Of a stretch of 64,000 bases of DNA, positions 34,327 through 54,019 are shown one piece after another. The stretch spans positions 94,609 to 158,608 of the forward strand of contig CAVPDG010000004.1 in NCBI GenBank assembly GCA_963702535.1, in the 5' to 3' direction. The notes under the pieces were generated by a model. The model was given only the letters and a program-made list of their open reading frames with translations. It had not been told where the DNA came from and made no database searches. This stretch comes from an uncultured Chloroflexia bacterium (GTDB lineage: Bacteria; Chloroflexota; Anaerolineae; Anaerolineales; UBA4823). Every line of letters starts with the position of its first letter. Position 1 is the first letter of the stretch. Made by a program: the position numbers and the translations under genes.

Positions 34327-35742
34327 TTAAGGCAACAGTACCGTATCGATCACGTGGATCACGCCGTTGGATGTTTCGATATCGGTAATGATCACCTGCA
34401 CGGTATCATTCAGATACACCTTGCCGTCTTTGACGGTGATCTTGATCTTCTCGCCTTCCAGGGCGGTGTCAACCATCTGTCCATCTAGCTGGACGACATC
34501 TGCAGCCATCACCTTACCAGGCACTACATGGTAGAGCAGGATATTCGTGAGGGTCTCCAGATTTTCCGGCTTGAGCAGGTCTTCCACGGTTCCAGCGGGC
34601 AGCTTGGCGAAAGCCTCGTCGGTGGGGGCAAAGAGGGTGAAAGGTCCTTCCCCTTTGAGGGTCTCAACCAGCCCGGCTGCCTGTACCGCAGCGACCAGGG
34701 TGGTGAAGCGACCGTCTGCTACAGCGGTATCAACGATATCCGAGAGCTTTTCCTCGGGGAGGAGCACTGCGTCAATCACGTGGATCACGCCGTTGGCGGT
34801 CTCGATGTCGGTGATGATCACTTCAACGTTCTCGTTCAGGTAGACTTTGCCATCCTTGACCGATATGTTGAGCGGGTTGTCCGCCAGAGCGGTGTCCGCC
34901 GTCTTTCCATCCAGGGTGACCACATCGGCTGCCATGACCTTACCGGGCACCACATGATATAGCAGGATGTTCTTCAGGGTCTCGATGTTCTCAGGCTTGA
35001 GCAGGTCTTCTACGGTTCCGGCGGGCAGCTTGGCGAAAGCATCGTCGGTGGGGGCGAAGACGGTGAAGGGACCTTCACTTTTGAGGGTGTCGACCAGCCC
35101 GGCTGCCTGCACGGCAGCCACCAGGGTGGTGAAGCGACCATCCGCTACAGCGGTATCAACGATATCCGAGAGCTTGGCGGGAGGCAGGAGCACTGCGTCA
35201 ATCACGTGGATCACGCCGTTGGCGGTCTCGATGTCGGTGATGATCACCTCAACGTTCTCATTCAGGTACACTTTGCCATCCTTGACAGATATATTGAGCG
35301 GATTGTCTGCCAGTGCGGTGTCCACCATCTTTCCATCCAGGGTGACCACATCGGCTGCCATGACTTTTCCAGCGACCACATGGTAGAGCAAGATGTTCTT
35401 CAGGGTCTCCAGGTTCTCGGGCTTGAGCAGGTCCTCTACGGTTCCGGCGGGCAGCTTGGCAAAAGCATCGTCGGTGGGGGCGAAGACGGTGAAGGGGCCT
35501 GCACTTTTGAGGGTGTCGACCAACCCGGCAGCCTGTACGGCAGCTACCAGGGTGGAGAAGCGACCATCAGCTACAGCCGTGTCGACGATATCCATAGGCG
35601 CTGGCATCTCGGTGGGAGGAACAGCGGTCGCCGTAGGAGCTGGCGGTTGGGTGGGCGCAGGTGTTGCTGCGGGGGCGCAAGCAGCCAAAACAAACGAGGC
35701 TACGAGCAGTACGAACAGGGTAACGATTGAAAAGCGTTTCAT
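34327..35742 (-). CDS. Lipoprotein with three tandem fasciclin (FAS1) domains
   Basis: The likely start [24 protein letters not shown] at 35742 is preceded by GGAGA, and the track ORF starts earlier in AT-rich DNA. There are three copies of [57 protein letters not shown]...[13 protein letters not shown]. Confidence 0.88.
34330..35600. repeat. Three tandem FAS1-coding repeats of about 420-426 bp
   Basis: Equivalent antisense ORFs start at 34547, 34967 and 35393. Long identical nucleotide runs are shared between the units. Confidence 0.8.
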
Positions 35743-41919: not shown

Positions 41920-42141
41920 CGCTTTTTCCCCCTTTGTACTGCTTCCTTCACCTGCGGTTTTTTCCTACAAAGACCAGGCCTCGCTCGGTTTGTTGAATTG
42001 CACCGCGGTTCCAGTTCGGGCGCGCAGCGCCTCCGGCAGCTCCTTCAGGTAGGTTGTTGGCAGGTCCGGCGAGAGATACACGGCTCCTTTGAATAGCTCC
42101 CTGTCATCTTTCAATACCCCTGTCCGGCGCGCCTCGTGCAC
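41920..42141. repeat. Right copy of the roughly 223-bp direct repeat (partner at 33923-34145)
   Basis: It covers the last roughly 58 codons plus about 45 nt of 3' flank of the intact radical-SAM gene. Confidence 0.85.
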
Positions 42142-43299
42142 GATATCCTGCAAACCTGTCCACAGGTACACGCCGATCGTCACCCACACTCCATTGGGGA
42201 TTTCATAATTGTCCAGCACACTCAGCGTCTCGGCGATGGTTTCGGGCGTCTCTCCCGGCGCTCCCAGCATCAGCGAGACCCCAAAGGGGATCTTTGACCG
42301 GCTCAGCGTTCCCAGCGCTTCCCGCACCTGCTGCGGTGTATAGCCCCGTTTCATCCGCTTCAGCATGCTCTCCGAAGCCGACTCGACCGAGAGATTGGCA
42401 TAGAAGCACCCCGATTCTTCCATCAGCCGGCAGAAGCTGTCCGTGATCTCGATCGGTCGCAGATCCCCGCTTCCCCATTGAAGTTCCGCTTTTTCCATGA
42501 TCAGTGCCCGCAGGATCGCTTCCGCGTGCTTGCGCGGCGCGTTGAAATTATTGTCGCAAAACATCACTCTGCGGCTACCCGTGCTCTCCAGGATGTGCCT
42601 GGCTTCAGCCAGCACCCGTTGTGGGCTTTTCAGCCGGTAGCGCTTGCCTTCTAGTTTGCTGTATGGGCAGTATGTACAGGCGAAGGCGCAGCCGCGTTTC
42701 GTCAGGATGGCAGGCGTGATCTTCCTCTGGGCATACGGCCCCCAATCCAGCAGGTCATAAGCCGGCAGAGCTTGCTGATCCAGATCTAGCACCGGGCGAG
42801 GGGGTGTCTCCTGGTAAATTCCATCCTTTCTTGCCACGCAGCCCGGCGCCGCGGTTAGATCCCCTCCCTCCACCATCAGTTTCAGGAATAGCGGAAAAGC
42901 ATCTTCCCCTTCACCGCGGATGCCGTAATCCAGATCCAGGTAATCCAGCCAGTCCCGCGCAAAGTAATTAAAGCCCGGTCCGCCCAGTACGATCCGGGCG
43001 GGCGAGACCTGGCGGATGGTATCGGTGATCTCCTTCACCCTCGGGCGCAGGTCGCTGTGCCGCGTCCCCAGAGGCGCTCCGCGGTCAACTGTGTCCCCAA
43101 ACACCAGCCGGATGGATACCCCTACCACGTCCGGTTGGAAAGCCTCCAGTCTGTTGCTCAATTCGCCCTTCAGGTCGTCGGCGAACAGCCGATCGTAGAT
43201 ATGCACTTCGTGTCCCGCCTGGCGCGCCGCTCCTGCCACGTAAACTGGCCCACTCGGAGCCGCAGGCTGTGTGTTGGATGATACGATAAGTACTTTCAT
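41965..43299 (-). CDS. B12-binding-domain radical SAM protein
   Basis: 444 aa. N-terminal Rossmann-like cobalamin-binding-type region (MKVLIVSSN...VVGVSIR...IVLGGPG). The radical-SAM cluster motif is RGCAFACTYCPY (CxxxCxxC). The start overlaps the upstream gene by 4 nt. Confidence 0.9.
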   Translation of the reverse strand: MKVLIVSSNTQPAAPSGPVYVAGAARQAGHEVHIYDRLFADDLKGELSNRLEAFQPDVVGVSIRLVFGDTVDRGAPLGTRHSDLRPRVKEITDTIRQVSPARIVLGGPGFNYFARDWLDYLDLDYGIRGEGEDAFPLFLKLMVEGGDLTAAPGCVARKDGIYQETPPRPVLDLDQQALPAYDLLDWGPYAQRKITPAILTKRGCAFACTYCPYSKLEGKRYRLKSPQRVLAEARHILESTGSRRVMFCDNNFNAPRKHAEAILRALIMEKAELQWGSGDLRPIEITDSFCRLMEESGCFYANLSVESASESMLKRMKRGYTPQQVREALGTLSRSKIPFGVSLMLGAPGETPETIAETLSVLDNYEIPNGVWVTIGVYLWTGLQDIVHEARRTGVLKDDRELFKGAVYLSPDLPTTYLKELPEALRARTGTAVQFNKPSEAWSL

Positions 43300-44132
43300 G
43301 CTCCACGCTTCTCGATTTCGAGTCGGTATTCATCCAGACCGTACCCGCTCTCGATCAATTCGATCAGTTTTCTTGTGAAACGCGTCGCCGGCGCCCCATC
43401 GATAACATCGTGGTCGAAGATGATCGTCAGGTTCATCAGCTCGCGCAGCGCGATCTTCCCTTCCACTTCTACCGGCTTGCGGGCGATGCCTCCCACCACC
43501 AGGTCGAGCACGTGCGAGCCGTTCGAGATGCCCCACCCGCTGTGCCCCTTGCCGAACATGCCCACCGATGAGATCCCCACCGTACCCGCCAGCGCCGTGA
43601 CGATCGTCGGGTCGCGGCGCTGCATCGTCCGGAAAGTGGACTTGAATAGGCTGGATAGCGGCCATGGCAGCAGCAGCGCCGAGCGGAACCAGGAGGCTTC
43701 TTTAGCTTCCGGGGTTTCCTGTCTCGCCTGCACCGCCCGGATCTCCTCGTGAATCTCGCTGAAGCTCTTGCGGTTGGCGCCTCGGATGACGTGCCCTCTC
43801 AGGATGAGTTTCTCCCCCTTCTTGAGCTCGATCATGAACCCCACGTCCACATCATCGAACATCACCACTTTTCTACGACCCTTCCGGTATGCCTGTACCG
43901 TTTTGTCCTCATCCACCGCTCGTGCCAGGCACCCGATCAGGTATCCTGTGAAGGAAAGCGTCTCGCCTGTGATGGCTTTGTATTCCTCGATGAAGTCCCT
44001 GGCGGTAGACACATCCACTTCCAAAAGGGCATACATGCTGTGCCGGTCCGCTTTTAGCTCCTGGAAAGCCGCCATGCCCCGCCGCTCTGCTGAGAGCTCA
44101 ACAACCTGGTAGGTTCCGCTTGTTTTATTCAT
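43296..44132 (-). CDS. Stand-alone 2-oxoacid-dehydrogenase E2-type acyltransferase catalytic domain (no lipoyl or subunit-binding domains)
   Basis: C-terminal active-site context LTIIFDHDVIDGAPATRFTRKLIELIESGYGL (the DHxxxDG motif of the CAT/E2 fold). The start MNKTSGTYQVVEL at 44132 was chosen by alignment with the paralog start MSTNTLTYQVVDL. The track ORF instead extends through the tandem repeat to 44207. Confidence 0.8.
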   Translation of the reverse strand: MNKTSGTYQVVELSAERRGMAAFQELKADRHSMYALLEVDVSTARDFIEEYKAITGETLSFTGYLIGCLARAVDEDKTVQAYRKGRRKVVMFDDVDVGFMIELKKGEKLILRGHVIRGANRKSFSEIHEEIRAVQARQETPEAKEASWFRSALLLPWPLSSLFKSTFRTMQRRDPTIVTALAGTVGISSVGMFGKGHSGWGISNGSHVLDLVVGGIARKPVEVEGKIALRELMNLTIIFDHDVIDGAPATRFTRKLIELIESGYGLDEYRLEIEKRGA

Positions 44133-44133
44133 T

Positions 44134-44208
44134 TTTGTTCCTCTCAAGTTTGATCCTCTCAAGTTTGTTCCTATCAAGCTTGTTCCTCTCAAGCCTGTTT
44201 GTGTCACG
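44134..44208. repeat. 15-bp tandem repeat, 4 good copies plus 1 degenerate, filling an intergenic spacer
   Basis: Plus-strand units: TTTGTTCCTCTCAAG (44134), TTTGATCCTCTCAAG (44149), TTTGTTCCTATCAAG (44164), CTTGTTCCTCTCAAG (44179) and CCTGTTTGTGTCACG (44194). On the coding (minus) strand each unit reads CTTGAGAGGAACAAR. Confidence 0.9.
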
Positions 44209-45718
44209 CTCGTTTACGATTTGCCCGCAAGATCAGCGCGCTGCGCAGCACAGCCCAGAGACCGGCAAAACTACCGCAGGACAGGGCGATGCACACATAA
44301 TCTGGTGCAAAGAGCCGCATGAACCCCCGCAGCTTGCCCAGCAAGGGCGCCAGTGTCAGCGCCGTAAGCAGGTTGGGGATGAACGGCAGCAGGATATACT
44401 GCCGCCACATCCGCCCGCGGCTGGGGCGCGAATCGGGCTGGCTGTTCCAGTGCTGCAGCAGCAGCGCTGTTGCAGCCACGCCCAGCATTTGCAGCGCCGG
44501 GATGAGCAGCATGCCCCGCATCACCCACGGCGCCGCGCCCAACATCTGCCGCGCAGGCGCCTCTCCCGCCAGCAATTGCGCTGCCAACATGCCCATCTCG
44601 TCAAATGTCATCTTCATCATCGCGTGGTTAGCATTGAAGAGCAATACGATACCTTTCCTTTGGTCAGGTACGAGCGCCATGAACGCCCCAAAGTCGGGGA
44701 CGACGCCGCTATGCGAGACGATCCTTGACCTGCCGGCCTCCTGGTCGATCCATCCCATGCCGTAGGACCCCAGCGCCATACCCATTTCCTTGATCTCTGC
44801 CGCTCCTCTATGCATCGCTTGAATGCCTGCTTCCGAGAGCAACTGTCTTCCTTTGTATCTCCCTCTGTTGAGCTGTGCGATCAGGTAGTGCGCCATGTCT
44901 TCGGCGCTGCAGATCAGCTGTCCGGAGGGCAGCGAGCCAGGTGGGACGCGCAGCTCGCCTGCGGCGACGGGAAATCCAAACCAGTAGCGGTGCCCCACCG
45001 CCAGCCCGTCCTGTTGCGCCGCGGCTTTCGATGTATAGCTATGCCGCATCTCCAGCGGATCGAAGATGTGTTTCTGGATATACTCGGCGTACGCCTCGCT
45101 GCTGGCAGCTTCCACGATCAGACCCAGCACGTTGTAGTTGGTGTTGCTGTACTCGAATTTCTCGCCCACCTTGCGCCTCAGCTTGAGCGTAGCCAGCGAG
45201 CGCACTTGCTTCTCGGTTGCCTCAGTTTGCTCCTCCAGGTCGCTGAGGCTTGCCAGTCCAAGCGACGTGGGCAAGCCGCTCGTCTGGTTGAGCAGGTGGC
45301 GCACCGTCATCTGCGCGGACGCCTGCGGGTCAGCCACGCAGAACCAGGGAAGGTAGCGCTGCACTGGGGCGTCTAGCTCCACCTTCCCTGCCTCCACCAG
45401 TTGCATCACCCCCAGCGCCGTGATCGACTTGGTCAGCGAGCCGATGAAAAAAGGCGTCTGTGGGTCAGGTGCCTCACCGCCCGGACTCCTCCGTCCGAAT
45501 CCCCGCAGGTGCGTGATCTGCTCCCCCTCCACGATCGCCAGCGCGACGCCCGGTATCTTAAATCGCCGCATTTGCTCTTCAACGAAGGCGTCAATGGTGG
45601 CGTAGTTCCTGCGGCTCGGCGCCGGATGAGCTGGGGCGTTTGCCGCGCGCAGCCGGTAAAGCACCCCCAATGCAGAGCAAGCCAGCAGAATCGGGAAAAG
45701 AAATGGTTTAATTCGCAT
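44204..45718 (-). CDS. Beta-lactamase-fold serine hydrolase with C-terminal TM helices
   Basis: 504 aa. Signal-like N-terminus, SxxK motif in FFIGSLTKSITALGVMQL, and a YSNTNY (YxN) motif. The last roughly 130 aa form several hydrophobic helices. Confidence 0.85.
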   Translation of the reverse strand: MRIKPFLFPILLACSALGVLYRLRAANAPAHPAPSRRNYATIDAFVEEQMRRFKIPGVALAIVEGEQITHLRGFGRRSPGGEAPDPQTPFFIGSLTKSITALGVMQLVEAGKVELDAPVQRYLPWFCVADPQASAQMTVRHLLNQTSGLPTSLGLASLSDLEEQTEATEKQVRSLATLKLRRKVGEKFEYSNTNYNVLGLIVEAASSEAYAEYIQKHIFDPLEMRHSYTSKAAAQQDGLAVGHRYWFGFPVAAGELRVPPGSLPSGQLICSAEDMAHYLIAQLNRGRYKGRQLLSEAGIQAMHRGAAEIKEMGMALGSYGMGWIDQEAGRSRIVSHSGVVPDFGAFMALVPDQRKGIVLLFNANHAMMKMTFDEMGMLAAQLLAGEAPARQMLGAAPWVMRGMLLIPALQMLGVAATALLLQHWNSQPDSRPSRGRMWRQYILLPFIPNLLTALTLAPLLGKLRGFMRLFAPDYVCIALSCGSFAGLWAVLRSALILRANRKRA

Positions 45719-45805
45719 CGGTCGGCTCTCCGTTTTGCTCCTTCTCAGAAGCTATCTTCCACTTTGGTGCATCCTGCCGGGTCCTCCAGCAGTGGATTAT
45801 TCGCC

Positions 45806-47116
45806 TTACTCCCCGCCGCCGCGCACCCACTCTAGCGTCAGCGCCAACACGTTAAAAAGCGGTTCTATCGACAAAACCTCTGGCGCATCCCACTTCTGAT
45901 GGTAGAAAGCAACCATCTGTGGTAGCTTGAAGCCAAGCAGCGTTGTAGCCTTAATGCCTGCCCGGCTAAAGGGTCCGGCGTCATTGGCGGTCCCGGGTAA
46001 GGCGGGCTGTACCTTGTAGGGGATCCCGGCGCGCTGCGCGGCTGCGATAACGCTTTCCACCATCTCGGCGGAGTTCTTAACTGTGCCGTTTGTCTCCGAC
46101 GTTAGGATGGTAATTTCTGCATGGGCGATCGTCTCGAAATTGAGCACCCGGGCATCCATGCGTTTTAGCTCATCCAGGTGGCGCCTGACGTAGCGCCGCG
46201 AGCCCCGATAACCGGCTTCCTCACTCCCGAACGAGATGAAGCGGATCTCAGTGTCTGCGGGTATGCATTCGGGGTGTTTCGCCAGGAACCTGCACATAGC
46301 CACAGCCAGGGCACAAGCCGAGAGATTATCCGCTGCCCCTGGCACAACGCCCCCGTTTTCCCTTCCCCGGGTGTAGAAAAACGCAAAGATCATCGAGGGC
46401 GCTACCGGATAAGCCAGCAATGCCCATCCCAATGTCCCCATGCGAACGATATCGGTGTTACCGGTGATCACACCCGCCAGTTGGATACCGCTCATCACCA
46501 GTATGCTGATCAATGCGAGTATCCATGTCACTGTGAGGATGAAGAACCCGTAACCCGTATACCGCAGCCAGGTGAATTCCAGGGCGCTGTCATGGTGCCC
46601 ACTCAGGATGAGCACTCGCTTCAACTGGCTGCTTTCAGGCTTGCGTAGCGTGCCGATGATATTCACGGACCTTTTCTTCTTGAAAAATCGATCGATCACT
46701 TCGTGACCGGTGAGGAACTCTAGAACGAACAGCAATACTGCGCTGAAAGAGAAAGTGAACGCAGCGGCTGCCATCGCCCAGGGCGAGGCTCCCGGGATGC
46801 GCCCGATGGAGATATTCAACAGGGCAGCAATCAGCATGAAACTTGTGCTGATGAGCTGCGCTCCTAAAAACGCTCCTGGAGCAAAGGTAAAGTCCTCAAC
46901 GGCGACGTTCTCAATACCCAGGTGCGCTTGTAGCTCTTGTTCAAGCATCCGCCCTCGCTCCCGCTCCTGGGGGCTGCCTGGCAGTCCCGGACCTACCTCC
47001 TGGCAGATTGCCGTCACAATCTCCAGGGAATAACGGGCGTCCTGCTCGCTGATAATCTCTGGCATGGGGCTGCCCTCTGGGAGAATCATCTCACCGCTGA
47101 CTTCTTGCCTCACCAC
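45806..47116 (-). CDS. M28-family metallopeptidase with membrane-spanning insertions
   Basis: Zn-ligand contexts: LILSGHHDS, PGAADNLSACA, FISFGSEEAGYRGS, YHQKWD. Hydrophobic helices lie before the catalytic domain and between the HHD and DN motifs. The start codon is uncertain (GTG 47116, ATG 47089 or ATG 47065). Confidence 0.75.
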   Translation of the reverse strand: MVRQEVSGEMILPEGSPMPEIISEQDARYSLEIVTAICQEVGPGLPGSPQERERGRMLEQELQAHLGIENVAVEDFTFAPGAFLGAQLISTSFMLIAALLNISIGRIPGASPWAMAAAAFTFSFSAVLLFVLEFLTGHEVIDRFFKKKRSVNIIGTLRKPESSQLKRVLILSGHHDSALEFTWLRYTGYGFFILTVTWILALISILVMSGIQLAGVITGNTDIVRMGTLGWALLAYPVAPSMIFAFFYTRGRENGGVVPGAADNLSACALAVAMCRFLAKHPECIPADTEIRFISFGSEEAGYRGSRRYVRRHLDELKRMDARVLNFETIAHAEITILTSETNGTVKNSAEMVESVIAAAQRAGIPYKVQPALPGTANDAGPFSRAGIKATTLLGFKLPQMVAFYHQKWDAPEVLSIEPLFNVLALTLEWVRGGGE

Positions 47117-48490
47117 ACGCCCTTCGCCCGTAGTTCCTGCATGGCGGATTTATGGGTCTCGATCAGCCGGGTGATGTCTTCATCGGTGTGCTCGGTGCAC
47201 ATGAACCCATGATGGGGCGGGATGTGCAGCCCGTTCTTGCGATACAACAGCCGTAAGCCAACACTGGCGAACGGATTTCCCCGGTGCGCATCGCGGACGT
47301 TGTTGATCGGTCCACGGGTGGCGTGCATCCAGAACATGGAACCAGCGCCGATGGCAAGCGCTGGATAATCTTCTTCCTGGGCAAAGCGGTTGATCTCAGC
47401 CCGGAAGCGGTCGCCCATGGCGTTAAGGCGGGTGTATAGCTGTGGCTCACGGCTCAGCCGCCGTAGTACAGCGGTCCCCGCCGCGATGACCAACGGGTTG
47501 CCATTGAAGGTGCCCGCCACCAGGATGGATTCCGGCTGTATATCGTATTCCATCAGGCGCATGGCTTCGGCGGTCCCACCCACGGCGCCTACGGGAATGC
47601 CGCCTCCAATGATTTTCCCGTAGGTACTGACATCCGGGATGACCCCGTAGAACTCTTGAGCTCCGCCCGGCGCCAGGCGGAAGCCGGTGATCACCTCGTC
47701 GAAGATGAGGAAAGCCCCGATCTCGTGGGTGATCCGGCGTAACTCGGTTAAGGAAATCCCTGCCAGCGGGTATCGAGCCCCCGGCGCCCTGCACGGGCTC
47801 GATGATCACGCCAGCCAGCCGGTCTGCATGTTGCCGGATTTTATCGAAGGCCGCGGGATGATTGAAGGGCAGGACAATGGTATCCTTCCAGGCGCCTTCC
47901 GCAAGTCCAGGGCTCTCGGGGATAGCGATGGGATCTTCGATGGGTCCAAACGAGCTGGCATTCGGGCTGGGTCGGCCGAGGCTGACGGCCAGCAGGTCAT
48001 GCGTGCCATGATACCCACCCTCGAACTTGGCGATGAGCGGCCGACCAGTGGTGGCACGCGCCAGCCGGCAGGCATACATGGTCGCCTCGCTACCCGAGTT
48101 GCACAGGCTCACCTTATCTACACCCGGCACCATGTCGCAAAACAGCCTGGCAAACTCATGCTCGTGCACATGGCACTGACCATAATGTGTCCCGTCTGGC
48201 AGCGCCTTCCGGATTGCTTCTTGAACATCGTCTGGCGTGTTGCCGAGGATCATGGTCGAGAAGCCAAGCATGAAGTCCAGGTATTCATTGTCATCCGCAT
48301 CCCAAATCCTGGCGCCTCTCGCCCGCTTAACCACCATTGGGAACGGGTCTGCCAGCCGGAAGATGCTGCCCACGCCCCCCGGCATCACCGTGCGGTTACC
48401 CTGCCAGATGGCTAATGACTTCGGGCATTTCGCCATGATCTCGCTGCGATAAGCGTTGAGCAGCTCCTCGACCCTTGCCTTGGCAACCAT
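47110..48490 (-). pseudogene. Class-III aminotransferase (glutamate-1-semialdehyde aminomutase-like); one frameshift
   Basis: 47447..48490 is good through ...VIIEPVQGAGGSIPAGRDFLN. 47110..47694 continues with ELRRITHEIGAFLIFDEVITGFRLAPGGAQEFYGVIPDVSTYGKIIGGG (PLP lysine context). The shift is at about 47745-47750. Confidence 0.85.
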
Positions 48491-48511
48491 CTTCTACACT
48501 CCTTCCCCGTA

Positions 48512-49343
48512 CTATTCTGTTCTCACTATTCCCAACTCTCCATCCAGCCCGTACCCGCTCTCGATCAGCTCCACCAGCCGGCGCACAAAGCGCGTGGCAG
48601 GACCGCCATCAACAATATCGTGGTCGAAGGATACGGTCAGGTTGAGGATCTCGCGCGGCTCGATCCGCCCATCCACGACGATTGGTTTCCAGGAGATGCT
48701 TCCCACGACCAGGCCGAGCGGATGGAGGGTGGGGCTTATCCCCCAGCCGCTGTGGCCCCCACCGAACATACCCACTGATGTAAGCGCGACCGTGCCTCCC
48801 ATCGACACGGCAATGGTTGGATCGCGGCGGCTGTTCATTCGGATCAAGGCGATAACCAACCTGGATAAAGGCCATGGCAGCAGCAAGGCCGAGCGGAACC
48901 AGCTGGGCATCCCTCTGCCCGGCGGTACTGGCTCGGTCTGCACCCTGCGAATCTCGTCATGGATTTCCCGGTAGGTCTTGCGGTTCGCAGCCCGGATGGT
49001 ATGTCCCATCAACGCGCGCTTCTCGCCAACCTGCCGTTCAACCATCAAGCCAACGTCCACATCGTCAAACAGGATGAGTTGTTTGTTACCCTTCCGGTGA
49101 GCCTGGATTGTTTTATCCTCGTCTACCGCTCGTGACAGGCAGAAAGTTAAGAAGCCAGCGAAGGACAGCTTCTCGCCGGTGTCCCTCTCGTGCTCCGCAA
49201 TCATCTTCCGCACGATCGTAACATCCACTTCCAATAAACCGTATATCGTGTGAGCCGGCCAGGACAGTTCTCAGCGCGTTCATCCATACGCGGCGCCCCG
49301 CTGGTAGATCTACGACCTGATAGGTTAAGGTGTTCGTGCTCAC
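48512..49343 (-). pseudogene. Second stand-alone E2-type acyltransferase catalytic domain (paralog of 43296..44132); one frameshift
   Basis: The GTG start gives MSTNTLTYQVVDLPAGRRVWMNALRTVLAGSH. The frame then changes at about 49247-49251 to ...TIYGLLEVDVTIVRKMIAEHERDTGEKLSF...LTVSFDHDIVDGGPATRFVRRLVELIESGYGLD. Confidence 0.75.
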
Positions 49344-49385
49344 CGGTTATTTCCTCCAGTAGAGCCGTCCGTAATCTGCCCTTGC

Positions 49386-49829
49386 TCAGCACAGCCGGAT
49401 GCGGATCATCACCGCAGTCTGCGCTGCCTTCTCTACTTCTTGTGCCTTTGGTTCTCCGTGGTCGTCGAAAGTCACCTGGTAATACCTGGCATCACTGGGC
49501 ACCTTGCGCAGGTGGGCTGCCAGACCGGCTGCCACAGCTTGCTTGTCTTCGGCGACCGGCTGGGCCAGCCCTTGAAGCTCCCGTCCCCGGATGCGCAGGG
49601 TAACCGGCGCCCCGCCGCGCAGGTTTTTCCACCAGCCGCCATGAGTGAATACGGTCACCTGATCGCCGTCTTGCGAGTAGTCGACCGGGGTGGTGTAGGT
49701 CTTGCCGCTCTTGCGCCCGGTGAAGGTGATCAACAGAACGGTTTTGCTCACTATCCCGTGGGCGGGAGAGCGGAGGATGAGTTTCATGGTTTTATTGACG
49801 AACGGTGGAATAGTTGGTGTTTCGGACAT
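49386..49829 (-). CDS. Small split-barrel protein, possibly an F420H2-dependent quinone/nitro-reductase family member
   Basis: 147 aa. LITFTGRKSGKTYTTPVDYSQDGDQVTVFTHGGWWKNLRGGAPVTL resembles the deazaflavin-dependent nitroreductase family. The assignment is from memory only. Confidence 0.5.
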   Translation of the reverse strand: MSETPTIPPFVNKTMKLILRSPAHGIVSKTVLLITFTGRKSGKTYTTPVDYSQDGDQVTVFTHGGWWKNLRGGAPVTLRIRGRELQGLAQPVAEDKQAVAAGLAAHLRKVPSDARYYQVTFDDHGEPKAQEVEKAAQTAVMIRIRLC

Positions 49830-49842
49830 TTCAGCCTCTTTC

Positions 49843-50733
49843 TCAGGGTTTCACTTGTTCATTATAAGCATAGGCCGGAGTCGTTTCGGTTAAAAAGCTC
49901 CGGATGATCCCAACCGTGACATCCTTCTCCTCTATTTGTGGGTTATGACCAGCGCACTCAATTAACTCCAGGCGGGCGTCCGGTATGCGATCTGCCAGGA
50001 TAGCTTGATGTTCCGGCGGGAACAGGAAGTCGTAGCGCCCTGCCGTGACCAGCGTGGGCACTTGAATCTCACCGAGCCGGTCCATCACCGTCCAGCCTTG
50101 GAGCATCTGGCCGTAACCAAAGATGAGGGCTTCGGGCCGCAATTTCATCGGCGGGCCCAATCCTAATTTCATTGCAAGCGTGATAATGCCGGGTTGATCC
50201 AAGAGGCTGGAGTGGTACGAGTACGCCTTCAAGAATTTTCTTAAAGTGGGAAAGTAATCATCGACCGTCACCTGCCCGTTTAAGAAACGGTGGGCTGCTT
50301 CCACAGTCTCGGCGTTGTAGCCCCGTTTCGCCAGGAGCTCGGGAGCATTGTGGTTCACCCACCACTGGTCACCACCGGTATTCATCAAGATCAGACGGGA
50401 GAGCCTTTGCGGGTAACGGAGCGCATACTCCAGGGCGACATTCCCGCCAAATGAATGCCCAAGGACGATCCATTGGTCGTAGCCGAGCTCCTGGCGCAGA
50501 GTGTCTGCATCGGCGGTGAGGTTGTCCATCGTCATCGTCGATGCTTCCGCTCCCTCAGAACGGCCGTTGCAGCGGTGGTCATAGAAGATCAGGGTGTATT
50601 GGTCCGCTAAAGGCTCCAGGGGCAGCAGGGTGGTGTGATCCAGGCTGGGACCACCGTGCATGAGCACCAGCGGGTATCCTTGTCCCATGACTTTCACGAA
50701 GAGGGATACATCTCGAATCTGCATGTGTGTCAT
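49843..50733 (-). CDS. Alpha/beta hydrolase (proline-iminopeptidase-like), intact
   Basis: 296 aa. PLVLMHGGPSLDH, nucleophile elbow VLGHSFGG, C-terminal ECAGHNPQIE (His of the triad). Confidence 0.85.
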   Translation of the reverse strand: MTHMQIRDVSLFVKVMGQGYPLVLMHGGPSLDHTTLLPLEPLADQYTLIFYDHRCNGRSEGAEASTMTMDNLTADADTLRQELGYDQWIVLGHSFGGNVALEYALRYPQRLSRLILMNTGGDQWWVNHNAPELLAKRGYNAETVEAAHRFLNGQVTVDDYFPTLRKFLKAYSYHSSLLDQPGIITLAMKLGLGPPMKLRPEALIFGYGQMLQGWTVMDRLGEIQVPTLVTAGRYDFLFPPEHQAILADRIPDARLELIECAGHNPQIEEKDVTVGIIRSFLTETTPAYAYNEQVKP

Positions 50734-51312: not shown

Positions 51313-54019
51313 TCAAGGCAAGATGCCGAACTGCCGGGCATGCGCCACCGCTTCGGTCCGGTTGGCTACGTCCAGCTTGCGGTAGATGCTTGCGGTGTGC
51401 GCTTTCACCGTCCCTGGCGATACGATGAGTTGCCGCGCGATCTCCTGGTTGCTCCTGCCCAGGGCAATGAGCTCAAGCACTTCCATCTCGCGCCCGGTGA
51501 GTGCCTCGATTAGCCCCGCGGGTTGAGTGCGTGGCTGGTTTGCCGGGCTCGTTAGTGCAAACGCCCCCAGTATTTTCTGGGCGTAGGGTTTATGCTTTGC
51601 CTCGGTAGACCGCAGGTGGGCAGCCAGTAGCTCGTGAACCGGCTCTCCCATGTCCAAGAAGACGCGCACGTACCCCTCTGCCTCCGCTAGCGCCAGGCAG
51701 GTTTCGATCTGTTGCATGGCTTCAGCCACGCGCCCTTGTCCCGCTGCTGCCGCTGCCAGCAGCAGGCTTCCTTCCAATTGCCTGGTCGTCTGGCTCGCAC
51801 CGGCGAATGCCAGCGTTTCCCCGGCGAGCAGTTCTTCCACTTCGGCGTACCGTCCTTGCGCCAGGCGGATTTGTCCCAGCGTCAGCCGGTACAGCTCCCT
51901 ATGCAGGTGGAAGTCCTCGCTCAGCAGCACATCCTCCGCCCACTGCGCCGCCGCTCGCAAGTCTCCCCTTGCCAGCGCCACGCGCGCTCTCAGCGTGCGC
52001 AGGTCCTCGTCGAATTCGCGCGGCTGGGCGTGCTCATGCAGCCTGGCTTCGAGCTTCTCCACGCTTTGCATCGCCGCGCCGTAGTCTCTCTTGGCGATGA
52101 GCACGCGTGTTAGCGCCGTCCATCCGAAGCCGTCCGTCATGATATTCCGCCACGGCTCGTTGTCTTTCAGCCCCTCACGGATGTATCTCTCAGCCTCCTC
52201 CAGGCGGTTCCATTCGGATAGCGCCTCCCCCAGGTCGATCTTCATGCTGCCCGATGTGTAGACAAACCGCACGCCTCTCTCCTCGATCGACGCCAGGTAT
52301 TCTCGGCACAGCTCGGCGGCTGCGTGCAGGCGCCCCATGATCAGGTAGAGACGGCTCAGGAATGGCACCAGCGTGGGGACGTTTGCTGTTCCCCGTAGCG
52401 CCTTCTCGCGCTGGATGCACTCGAGTGAAACATCCACCGCCCGCTCCAGCTCACCTCGTCGCGCCAGCGCCATCCCGTACAGAATATCTGCCGCGTTGCG
52501 CAGCAATGGGTCCTGCGCCGGTATCTCATCCAGTAAGCGGTATTCGGGCAGGGGAGCCAGGCTGCTCGCCTCTGCCGGCGAGGCAAGGAAAGCCACAGCC
52601 GTATCGATGAAGATGAGCATCCAGCGCTGACCGGATTTGCCTTCTCCCTTTTCGAGTTGTTGCCTCAAGTCGTTCAACAATGGACGGGCTTTTGCGATGC
52701 GCGCCTGGGTGATCATCAGCCACGCCTGGTACAATCCGATTTTCGGTCGTGCCAGGATCATCGCTTGCGGCAGGCTCTCCGCCAGCAGCAGCACCGTCGG
52801 GTCGCTCTCTGCCAGGCGTTGCGCTCCGTAGCGCTCAACCAGCTCCCCTGCCTTGTCCACCGCCTCGGCAGCCAGCAGGTGCTGGATCGCCTCGCCGATC
52901 AATCCGTTCTGCTCCAGCCAGGCGGAAGCTTTTATATGCAGTTTGAGGATCAGCTCGGGTTGGCTTTGCTGCAGCCGGGCGCGCAGCAGGTCGGCGAACA
53001 GTTGGTGGTAGCGGTACCACGTCCGCTCATCGTCCAGCGCAACCAGGAAGAGGTTTGCCCTTTCCATATCCTCCAGGATAGATCCGGGAGTCGAGCGCCT
53101 GCGTTTCCGGCTCTCTTTCCGCTGTCCATTCCTGAGGCTCGCGGATTGCCTCGCACAGCGGGGCGCACAAACGCTCCAAAATCGACGTGCGCAACAGGAA
53201 TTCCTGAATTTGCTGCGGCTGGCTTGCCAGCACCTCCTCCAGCAGGTAATCCAGAATGTAGCGGTTACTGCCCGAGAAGCCTTCGATGAACCCACGCCCA
53301 TCTTTTCGCTCGCGCAGCGAAAGTGCCGCCATTTGTAGCCCGGCGATCCAACCCTCCGTTCGCTCTTCGAGGCTGGCTACGGCTGCGGCGTCCAGTTTTA
53401 AACCCATCATCTCGTTGAGGAACTGGTTTGCTTCGGACTCGCTGAAGCGCAGGTCAACCGCCCGCAGTTCCACCACTTGCCCGCGCGCCCTTAAACGCGC
53501 CACCGGTAGCGGCGGGTCCGAGCGGCTGGCGATCACCAGGTGCAGGCGATTCGGGCAGTGCTCGAGCAGAAAAGCCACTGCCTCGTGCACTGCCGGGTTG
53601 GTGATGAACTGGTAATCGTCCAGCGCCAGTGCGATTTCCCCCGTAGCCCCCTCCAGGTCGTTGATCAGGCTCGTCAAAACGGCTTCCGGCAGCGCTTGCG
53701 GCGCAGCCATCAGCAGTTGCGCCGCCTCGCCTCCGATAACCGCATCCACTCCCTGCAGGGCAGCCGTCAGGTAGCTCAGGAAGCGCCCCACCAGATTGTC
53801 GCCCTTGTCCAGCGATACCCAAGCCCCGCGCACGCCGCAGCTCGCCATGCAGCTTGCCAACAGCGTCGTCTTCCCGAAACCTGCCGGAGCTGTGATGAGC
53901 GTCAGCGGACCTTTCAACCCCTCCGCCATCTGCGCCAGCAGTCGCGGCCGCCCCACCAGGCTGGGCCGGGTGAAGGGTGGGTGCAGCTTCGTGCGAAGAA
54001 GCAGGTCAACCTTTTGCAT
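51313..54019 (-). pseudogene. MalT-like LuxR-family regulator (NTPase + helical repeats + C-terminal HTH); one frameshift
   Basis: N-terminal P-loop LITAPAGFGKTTLLAS and LALDDYQ (53027..54019). The section ...ILEDMERANLFLVALDDERTWYRYHQLFADLL, the TPR-like repeats and the LuxR HTH LTGREMEVLELIALGRSNQEIARQLIVSPGTVKAHTASIYRKLDV lie in 51313..53301. The shift is at about 53081-53092. Confidence 0.85.

Follow-up and report, generated by a model that had tools for sequence, protein, structure and literature searches.

The closest known kind of system to the locus described here is the intergenic VNTR in a translation leader, of the slipped-strand mispairing type. In Anaplasma marginale, a 5'-UTR microsatellite lies between the Shine-Dalgarno (SD) motif and the ATG of msp1a (PMC3679145), and its 2-4 nt units alter the SD-ATG spacing. 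The mycobacterial repetitive units of the MIRU-VNTR type occupy intercistronic junctions (PMC12548453), being 40-100 bp long, dispersed over many loci and apparently mobile. Related behaviour is known from standby sites (de Smit and van Duin model), for which unstructured 5' tails can serve; the tails examined consisted of CA or AU repeats and not of SD-like motifs, and such sites rescue a structured ribosome-binding site (Sterk et al., 2018; PMC5934652). Clusters of GGA motifs are the hallmark of a further candidate class, CsrA usually recognising GGA-bearing hairpin loops (PMC13443453).

The array analysed here lies in the spacer between a serine hydrolase gene and an acyltransferase gene, within a window that comprises the whole 64-kb stretch of DNA under study. 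Each of its four units holds an SD-like GA(G/T)AGGA and one TTG. The features on which the comparison relies are the following:

44204..45718, minus strand: beta-lactamase-family serine hydrolase, 504 aa (Pfam PF00144, E = 1.9e-71)
44207-44205, minus strand: GTG overlapping the hydrolase stop (GTGA)
44206-44204, minus strand: TGA stop of the hydrolase gene
44203-44194, minus strand: non-repeat part of the spacer, 10 nt, CACAAACAGG, common to relatives
44134-44193, minus strand: array of four head-to-tail 15-nt units CTTGAGAGGAACAAA, from Tandem Repeats Finder and a pattern search
44193-44179, minus strand: copy 1, CTTGAGAGGAACAAG
44178-44164, minus strand: copy 2, CTTGATAGGAACAAA
44163-44149, minus strand: copy 3, CTTGAGAGGATCAAA
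44148-44134, minus strand: copy 4, CTTGAGAGGAACAAA
44175..44197, minus strand: predicted 8-bp hairpin CAGGCUUG-AGAGGAA-CAAGCUUG, -9.5 kcal/mol
44139..44145, minus strand: working Shine-Dalgarno GAGAGGA of copy 4, 6 nt before ATG 44132
44133, minus strand: extra A (c-AAAA-ATG here, c-AAA-ATG in the relative L001), part of a 5-A run
44132-44130, minus strand: start ATG of the acyltransferase gene
43296..44132, minus strand: E2-like acyltransferase, catalytic domain only, 278 aa (Pfam PF00198, E = 2.3e-25)
41965..43299, minus strand: B12-binding radical SAM gene, its start overlapping the acyltransferase stop (4-nt ATGA)
47110-48490: class-III aminotransferase gene, frameshift-split
48512-49343: gene of an E2-like paralog, frameshift-split
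51313-54019: MalT-like regulator gene, frameshift-split

The sequence and coordinates of the four tandem 15-bp repeats were found as an earlier note on this DNA had written them. Tandem Repeats Finder placed the array at 44134-44193 with a period of 15, 4.0 copies, 88% matches and a score of 99, the top score for a short-period array in the 64-kb window. A 14-nt unit searched with two mismatches or fewer matched four times in the window, always inside the array, against 0.34 matches expected by chance, and four matches were reached in 0 of 100 shuffles. A form of the unit usable as a search string is CTTGAGAGGAACAA. The same note had counted a degenerate fifth copy, CGTGACACAAACAGG, which had to be given up, as it agrees with the unit at 9/15 positions only and is to be read as conserved non-repeat spacer that is also found in relatives. 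Together with CACAAACAGG and the extra A, the array brings the distance between the upstream stop and the ATG to 71 nt. The copies differ from their consensus at 3/60 positions, through three private substitutions in 60 nt, and none of these alters the SD core AGGA in any of the four copies, which would fit, if weakly, with selection acting on this motif.

The gene identities proposed earlier, a hydrolase and an E2-like acyltransferase, are borne out by the PF00144 and PF00198 matches, and the acyltransferase and radical SAM genes belong to the same operon. The gene order of the window recurs in five related loci (L001, L003, L045, L048 and L051). At its 3' end the hydrolase gene reads ...CGT AAA CGA GCG TGA, followed by CACAAACAGG, and the corresponding C-terminus, ...LRSALILRANRKRA*, is kept in L001, L051 and L045. 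Frameshifts break three genes within 10 kb, which casts doubt on the accuracy of single-base indels, or on the integrity of the genes, in this region.

A protein search with the acyltransferase returned 3452 homologs, nearly all of 267-300 aa and, where their source was named, from Anaerolineae/Anaerolineales (Chloroflexota). The DNA of the closest of these was compared at the hydrolase-acyltransferase junction, leaving aside two near-identical relatives (L052 and L053) whose contigs stop inside the gene. Comparing copy number across orthologous junctions, as the earlier note had suggested, separated the window, with four copies, from its close relatives, with one: four independent single-copy relatives at 89-95% protein identity have spacers of 25-27 nt. 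The junctions nearest to that of the window are these:

L001 and L002 (two independent samples): 95% aa and ~95% nt identity, junction TGAcacaagcaggCTTGAGAGAAACAAAATG, unit read cttgagagaaacaaaATG, spacer 25 nt
L051: 95.6% nt identity over the E2 gene, cttgagagaagcaaaaATG, spacer 26 nt
L003: 89% aa identity, ctcgagagaaagagaaaATG, spacer 27 nt
L045-47: 77% aa identity, spacer 28 nt with canonical GGAGG and no repeat

Counterparts of CACAAACAGG stand at the same position in L001 (cacaagcagg), L051 (cacaatcagg) and L003 (cacaatcaag). The array is absent from 41 GTDB species-representative Anaerolineae/Chloroflexota loci (49-74% identity), and from ~45 more distant orthologous junctions altogether. 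In these 41 distant loci the acyltransferase gene overlaps its upstream neighbour by 4 nt (ATGA), follows it after a short spacer, or lies 35-62 nt behind an aminotransferase gene, and most orthologs carry GGAGG 8-11 nt before the start. No intermediate allele of two or three copies was present among the relatives' junctions compared. Because close relatives have one unit, or none, at this junction, the four-copy state is derived and confined to the lineage of the window.

The same comparison bears on the age of the array. Between the window and either L001 or L051, 10-16% of 4-fold degenerate sites differ (p = 0.10-0.16 pairwise); since the divergence among copies is about that of per-lineage neutral change, the array is not brand new. 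In 305 kb of related loci, short arrays of three copies or more turn up roughly once every 50-100 kb, and against this background such an array is not rare in these genomes.

Pairing energies were computed against the canonical 16S tail GAUCACCUCCUUUCU, which was assumed for the host, rRNA being absent from the window. With this assumed tail, the GAGAGGA of copy 4 forms a 7-bp duplex of -9.7 kcal/mol; on the same canonical tail the median of 39 orthologs, mostly with GGAGG, is -9.5 kcal/mol, and the single-copy GAGAGAA gives -5.0 (L001), -5.1 (L051) and -6.6 kcal/mol (L003). These values agree with the earlier view of the last copy as the ribosome-binding site, its GAGAGGA standing 6 nt before the ATG and pairing near the ortholog median, and of the other three as phased duplicates of it. 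With the assumed tail, copy 4 thus serves as the Shine-Dalgarno site of the acyltransferase gene, and the remaining copies are its phased duplicates. The A-to-G change that turns GAGAGAA into GAGAGGA, and shifts the predicted pairing from ~-5 to -9.7 kcal/mol, is found in 4/4 copies and, because the G is present in all four, predates the expansion. Each upstream motif has the TTG of the next unit 6 nt downstream, and the canonical-tail energies are -9.7 kcal/mol for copy 1 (before the TTG of copy 2), -6.3 kcal/mol for copy 2 (before the TTG of copy 3) and -9.8 kcal/mol for copy 3 (before the TTG of copy 4).

The start at ATG 44132, also preferred in the earlier note, is upheld by all orthologs, which begin at the residue aligned to it and share the N-terminal pattern M-N/S-x-K-x-G-x-Y-Q/H-V; homologs that are longer owe this to C-terminal extensions or to a clearly over-called start. 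The protein that the window encodes from this ATG has an identical counterpart in the public records (P0124; NCBI/ENA; 828-kb contig), given there as 278 aa. Translation is therefore taken to start at ATG 44132.

On these grounds the array is read, with a probability of about 0.72, as a non-coding, lineage-specific 1-to-4 expansion of an SD-bearing spacer segment whose effect on expression would be neutral or modest. The ancestral junction had a spacer of 25-28 nt with one unit. In the lineage of the window, the A-to-G change made the weak GAGAGAA into GAGAGGA before the expansion, after which the unit went from one copy to four and the spacer from ~25 to 71 nt, most likely by replication slippage (slipped-strand mispairing) or unequal recombination inside the operon. 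Translation proceeds from ATG 44132 with the SD of the last copy, and the A-rich upstream copies may hold 30S subunits transiently in a standby-like manner. With 46 nt more between stop and start, coupling to the hydrolase gene by termination-reinitiation should be weaker, given that coupling efficiency drops with stop-start distance even when the distance grows by <20 nt (PMC12548453). As coupling is probably weakened, the acyltransferase gene would lean more on its own, stronger SD. The array may have a standby, enhancer or decoupling effect; on balance, expression would probably change modestly, or not at all.

Set against the described systems, the array shares with msp1a its short tandem units in a bacterial translation-initiation leader, a copy number that varies among close relatives and the possibility of expression tuning. 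As expected of a VNTR, its head-to-tail copies exceed chance and close relatives differ in number, with 4 copies versus 1; unlike msp1a, a single multi-copy allele is known here and the difference is one between close relatives. Furthermore, the 15-nt unit itself holds the SD, so that the spacing between the last SD and the ATG stays constant while the number of SD-like motifs changes. The array does not qualify as a phase-variable contingency locus of the simple-sequence-repeat type, the gain or loss of a unit leaving both the frame and the last SD-ATG distance unchanged and no promoter being present; because the unit contains the SD and has a length that is a multiple of three, the array should be incapable of on/off switching and could act at most as a rheostat.

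With the MIRUs the array has in common that tandem units stand between co-oriented operon genes and that a frame may link the upstream stop with the downstream start, as in the 10-codon frame of L001 that runs from GTGA to ATGA. It departs from them in its 15-bp unit, which arose in place from local spacer and occupies one locus only: there was no MIRU-like dispersal, the 64-kb window holding no second site, and a degenerate two-unit pattern run against metagenome contigs gave two unrelated matches (L049 and L050) and no second array. A conserved 5' coding 27-mer had 0 matches in the metagenome collection without the L001 contig. The bridging mini-frame also lies at chance frequency among orthologs, whereby a conserved bridging mini-ORF (NTGA start to ATGA stop) was rejected: it occurs in ~5 of ~40 junctions, matching a rough chance estimate of ~16%, namely in L001/L002, L004, L017 and L026, and by eye in L045-47. 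As in standby sites, the predicted RNA upstream of the ribosome-binding site is A-rich and, in copies 1 and 2, mostly unpaired, copy 3 being about half paired. Unlike the structured sites that standby tails rescue, the ribosome-binding site here is predicted to be open already, and an array of SD-like motifs may resemble the CA or AU tails in function.

Folding of the whole leader, which the earlier note had recommended, gave a z-score of -1.63 in the window and one of 0.22 in L001; both fall short of significance, and the hairpin spanning copies 1 and 2 is the sole robust predicted structure. It owes its formation to an AAGCTT palindrome where copies 1 and 2 meet; relatives show no such hairpin, which is, as modelled, a by-product of the duplication. 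The predicted unpaired fractions are 0.84 for the last SD and 0.65 for the AUG; copies 1 and 2 and the last SD fall at 0.80-0.86, and copy 3 at 0.42. The only terminator-like match corresponds to the copy-1 hairpin on the plus (antisense) strand, and the whole 64-kb window has no match to an Rfam family.

Of the competing explanations, translation of the repeats is the least improbable. Initiation at the GTG at 44207, coupled to the hydrolase stop that it overlaps, or at the TTGs of the units would extend the acyltransferase by 5-25 N-terminal residues in a pentapeptide-repeat-like (T/S)NLRG pattern, a coding alternative that the earlier note had raised for the GTG. The sequence of the window leaves this frame open, with the GTG and all four unit TTGs in phase with the ATG; the SD-like motifs, at -6.3 to -9.8 kcal/mol, are well spaced before TTG2-4, and residues 6-28 of the GTG-start product match the Pfam Pentapeptide family PF00805 marginally (20.6 bits versus a cut-off of 20.2, E = 3.4e-4), (T/S)NLRG fitting the A(D/N)LXX consensus of these proteins in one frame. 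Moreover, a true pentapeptide-repeat gene (L050) has a DNA unit 14/15 identical to the array unit, a likeness that arises because those codons encode ANLRG. This phase, however, hangs on the extra A at 44133 within the 5-A run (caaaaATG versus caaaATG), next to three frameshifted genes. The relatives have the GTG in another phase than the ATG: in L001/L002 a 10-codon frame begins at it and is closed by the TGA of ATGA, and in L051 (26-nt spacer) and L003 (27-nt spacer) it is likewise out of phase. Its conservation has no other reason than its being part of GCG TGA, and it lacks an SD (-3.3 kcal/mol). None of the 120 homologs listed has such an N-terminal tail, and the identical protein is publicly annotated without one. 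The 25-codon tail also differs from coding sequence in composition: its codon adaptation index is 0.31 versus 0.69 for the gene, below 99.9% of 24-codon windows in long ORFs, its GC3 is 0.33 versus 0.75, its rare codons include AGA (6%), TCA (6%), ATA (8%), TTG (11%), ACA (14%) and GGA (15%), and 3/3 inter-copy substitutions are nonsynonymous in its frame. The pentapeptide-repeat fold is a right-handed quadrilateral beta-helix with four pentapeptides per coil, and the four to five pentapeptides available here would make at most one coil, too few for a stable beta-helix. The PF00805 score is driven by a perfect short repeat and, since the single ancestral unit already lies in the non-coding spacer of relatives, the borderline match is best read as coincidence; four repeats only, rare codons, a frame that is not conserved and an origin in ancestral non-coding spacer all set the array apart from PF00805 proteins. 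That the array was acquired from a pentapeptide-repeat gene was rejected for the same reason, the unit being present in the relatives' spacer beforehand. Translation from the GTG or the unit TTGs is consequently unlikely, and the array is most likely non-coding, as judged from codon usage and frame. A more elaborate version, in which four in-phase modules (SD1-TTG2, SD2-TTG3, SD3-TTG4 and SD4-ATG) together with the GTG would produce a ladder of acyltransferase isoforms bearing a (T/S)NLRG tract, is decidedly improbable; if true, a duplicated ribosome-binding site would here have given rise de novo to a segment of repeat protein.

The remaining alternatives concern what the array does or whether it is there. 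The earlier note had seen in it a possible regulatory array, either CsrA/RsmA-type sites or a standby array, a proposal that as a conserved device finds no support, given the absence of the repeats from the four close relatives and the ~45 distant junctions. For a platform bound by CsrA/RsmA or another RNA-binding regulator, with regulated repression through the site overlapping the SD, one can point to a GGA motif in each of the four units, hence every 15 nt, of which that in copy 4 overlaps the SD, and to the AGAGGAA of copy 1 in the loop of the 8-bp hairpin of -9.5 kcal/mol, features reminiscent of known clusters. In contrast to those clusters, the sites are not conserved, relatives at ~95% nt identity having one GAGAGAA and no GGA, and only the GGA of copy 1 stands in a hairpin loop, 3/4 motifs lying outside hairpins. 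The searches proposed earlier for further units and for csrA found neither in the 64-kb window (tblastn, the queries being CsrA of E. coli and an approximate CsrA sequence of B. subtilis), the gene being carried by only ~30% of bacterial genomes (PMC13443453), and no Rfam family matched; a role of this type is very unlikely. Equally slim are the prospects of an assembly or consensus artefact, in which the true sequence would have one copy or fewer. The four-copy array is known from one assembly, metagenome contigs scanned for its exact pattern gave no second instance, and the frameshifts in three nearby genes suggest an imperfect consensus; nevertheless, the copies are non-identical, with three private substitutions, which argues against a crude assembly duplication, and the flanking 2.4 kb align to L001 without an indel. 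Assemblers usually collapse a 60-nt array and do not expand it, and single reads span such an array. An action on the DNA itself is the hardest to credit, whether the repeats were direct-repeat operators of a transcription factor or a promoter inside the operon that drives the acyltransferase and radical SAM genes. Response regulators typically bind direct repeats, each unit has a -35-like TTGAGA/TTGATA, and a MalT-like LuxR regulator is encoded 7 kb away, but no sigma-70-like promoter occurs in 43000-46500 on either strand, the 15-bp period is out of helical phase, and relatives with the same operon lack the array.

Taken as the non-coding, lineage-specific expansion described above, the array is a real feature and most likely an ordinary one, not a conserved regulatory device, and it indicates no new regulatory system. 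It carries a caution for annotation, as short in-frame repeats before a start can give spurious Pfam pentapeptide matches and over-long gene calls. The natural pair of a 1-copy and a 4-copy junction would be of modest value for studying how tandem SD-like motifs and spacer length bear on initiation and coupling. If the main reading is right, the locus would offer a small natural case of the evolution of an operon-internal ribosome-binding site, in which the strong ancestral GGAGG weakened to GAGAGAA within one clade, and one lineage then regained the pairing by a point change and, with a longer spacer and probably looser translational coupling, amplified the element fourfold.

The gene cluster that surrounds the array of 15-nt units, at 41965-50733 on the minus strand of the window, is conserved in many Anaerolineae MAGs and comprises, in order:

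Gene 1, minus strand: alpha/beta hydrolase
Gene 2, minus strand: F420H2-dependent-reductase-like protein
Gene 3, minus strand: E2-like acyltransferase (paralog)
Gene 4, minus strand: class-III aminotransferase
Gene 5, minus strand: M28 peptidase-like membrane protein
Gene 6, minus strand: beta-lactamase-family protein bearing a membrane region at its C-terminus
Gene 7, minus strand: second E2-like acyltransferase
Gene 8, minus strand: B12-binding radical SAM enzyme

Close to the array, three genes of the window are split by frameshifts, reflecting either a decaying gene cluster or assembly indel errors:

47110-48490, minus strand: class-III aminotransferase, as two overlapping ORFs matching Pfam positions 7-216 and 244-348
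51313-54019, minus strand: MalT-like LuxR regulator, with TPR_MalT and GerE together in the ORF that follows the one carrying AAA_16
48512-49343, minus strand: E2-like acyltransferase paralog (gene 3 above), with a frame change around 49250

Many genes are fragmented in the assemblies of two close relatives carrying a single unit in the spacer, L003 and L051 (ENA ERZ25039459 and ERZ25039503), where the beta-lactamase and radical SAM genes are split and the acyltransferase is fused with the following gene. This suggests an indel-rich consensus, and the spacers measured there, 27 nt in L003 and 26 nt in L051, are therefore approximate values of doubtful single-base precision.

Several orthologous junctions contain a short frame running from the upstream stop (NTGA) to the downstream start (ATGA):

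1127-1158: L001, a close relative with a single unit
About 213-247: L045, a 77% amino acid identity relative lacking the repeat
Junctions of three further loci: L004, L017 and L026

Because its incidence among orthologous junctions is at chance level, this frame is unlikely to be a conserved coupling ORF.

Other repeats were also observed. A large tandem repeat in the window at 34349-35593 (period 426 bp, 2.9 copies, 86% identity, TRF score 1804) presumably corresponds to a repeated protein domain. In a Chloroflexota MAG locus (L018, 1277-1957), decamer arrays of GGGAACTNNN reach up to 9.4 copies, and a small ORF is flanked on one side by direct GGGAACTNNN copies and on the opposite side by inverted AGTTCCCC copies; the inserted ORF separates a histidine kinase gene from that of its response regulator, and the whole looks like an inserted repeat-bounded element.

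An unrelated metagenome contig (L050), retrieved by scanning for the unit pattern, carries at 1512-1633 a genuine pentapeptide-repeat CDS (ANLRGADLREANL...), whose 15-nt DNA unit is identical to that of the window at 14 of 15 positions, illustrating the ease with which the spacer repeat mimics the pentapeptide-repeat family.
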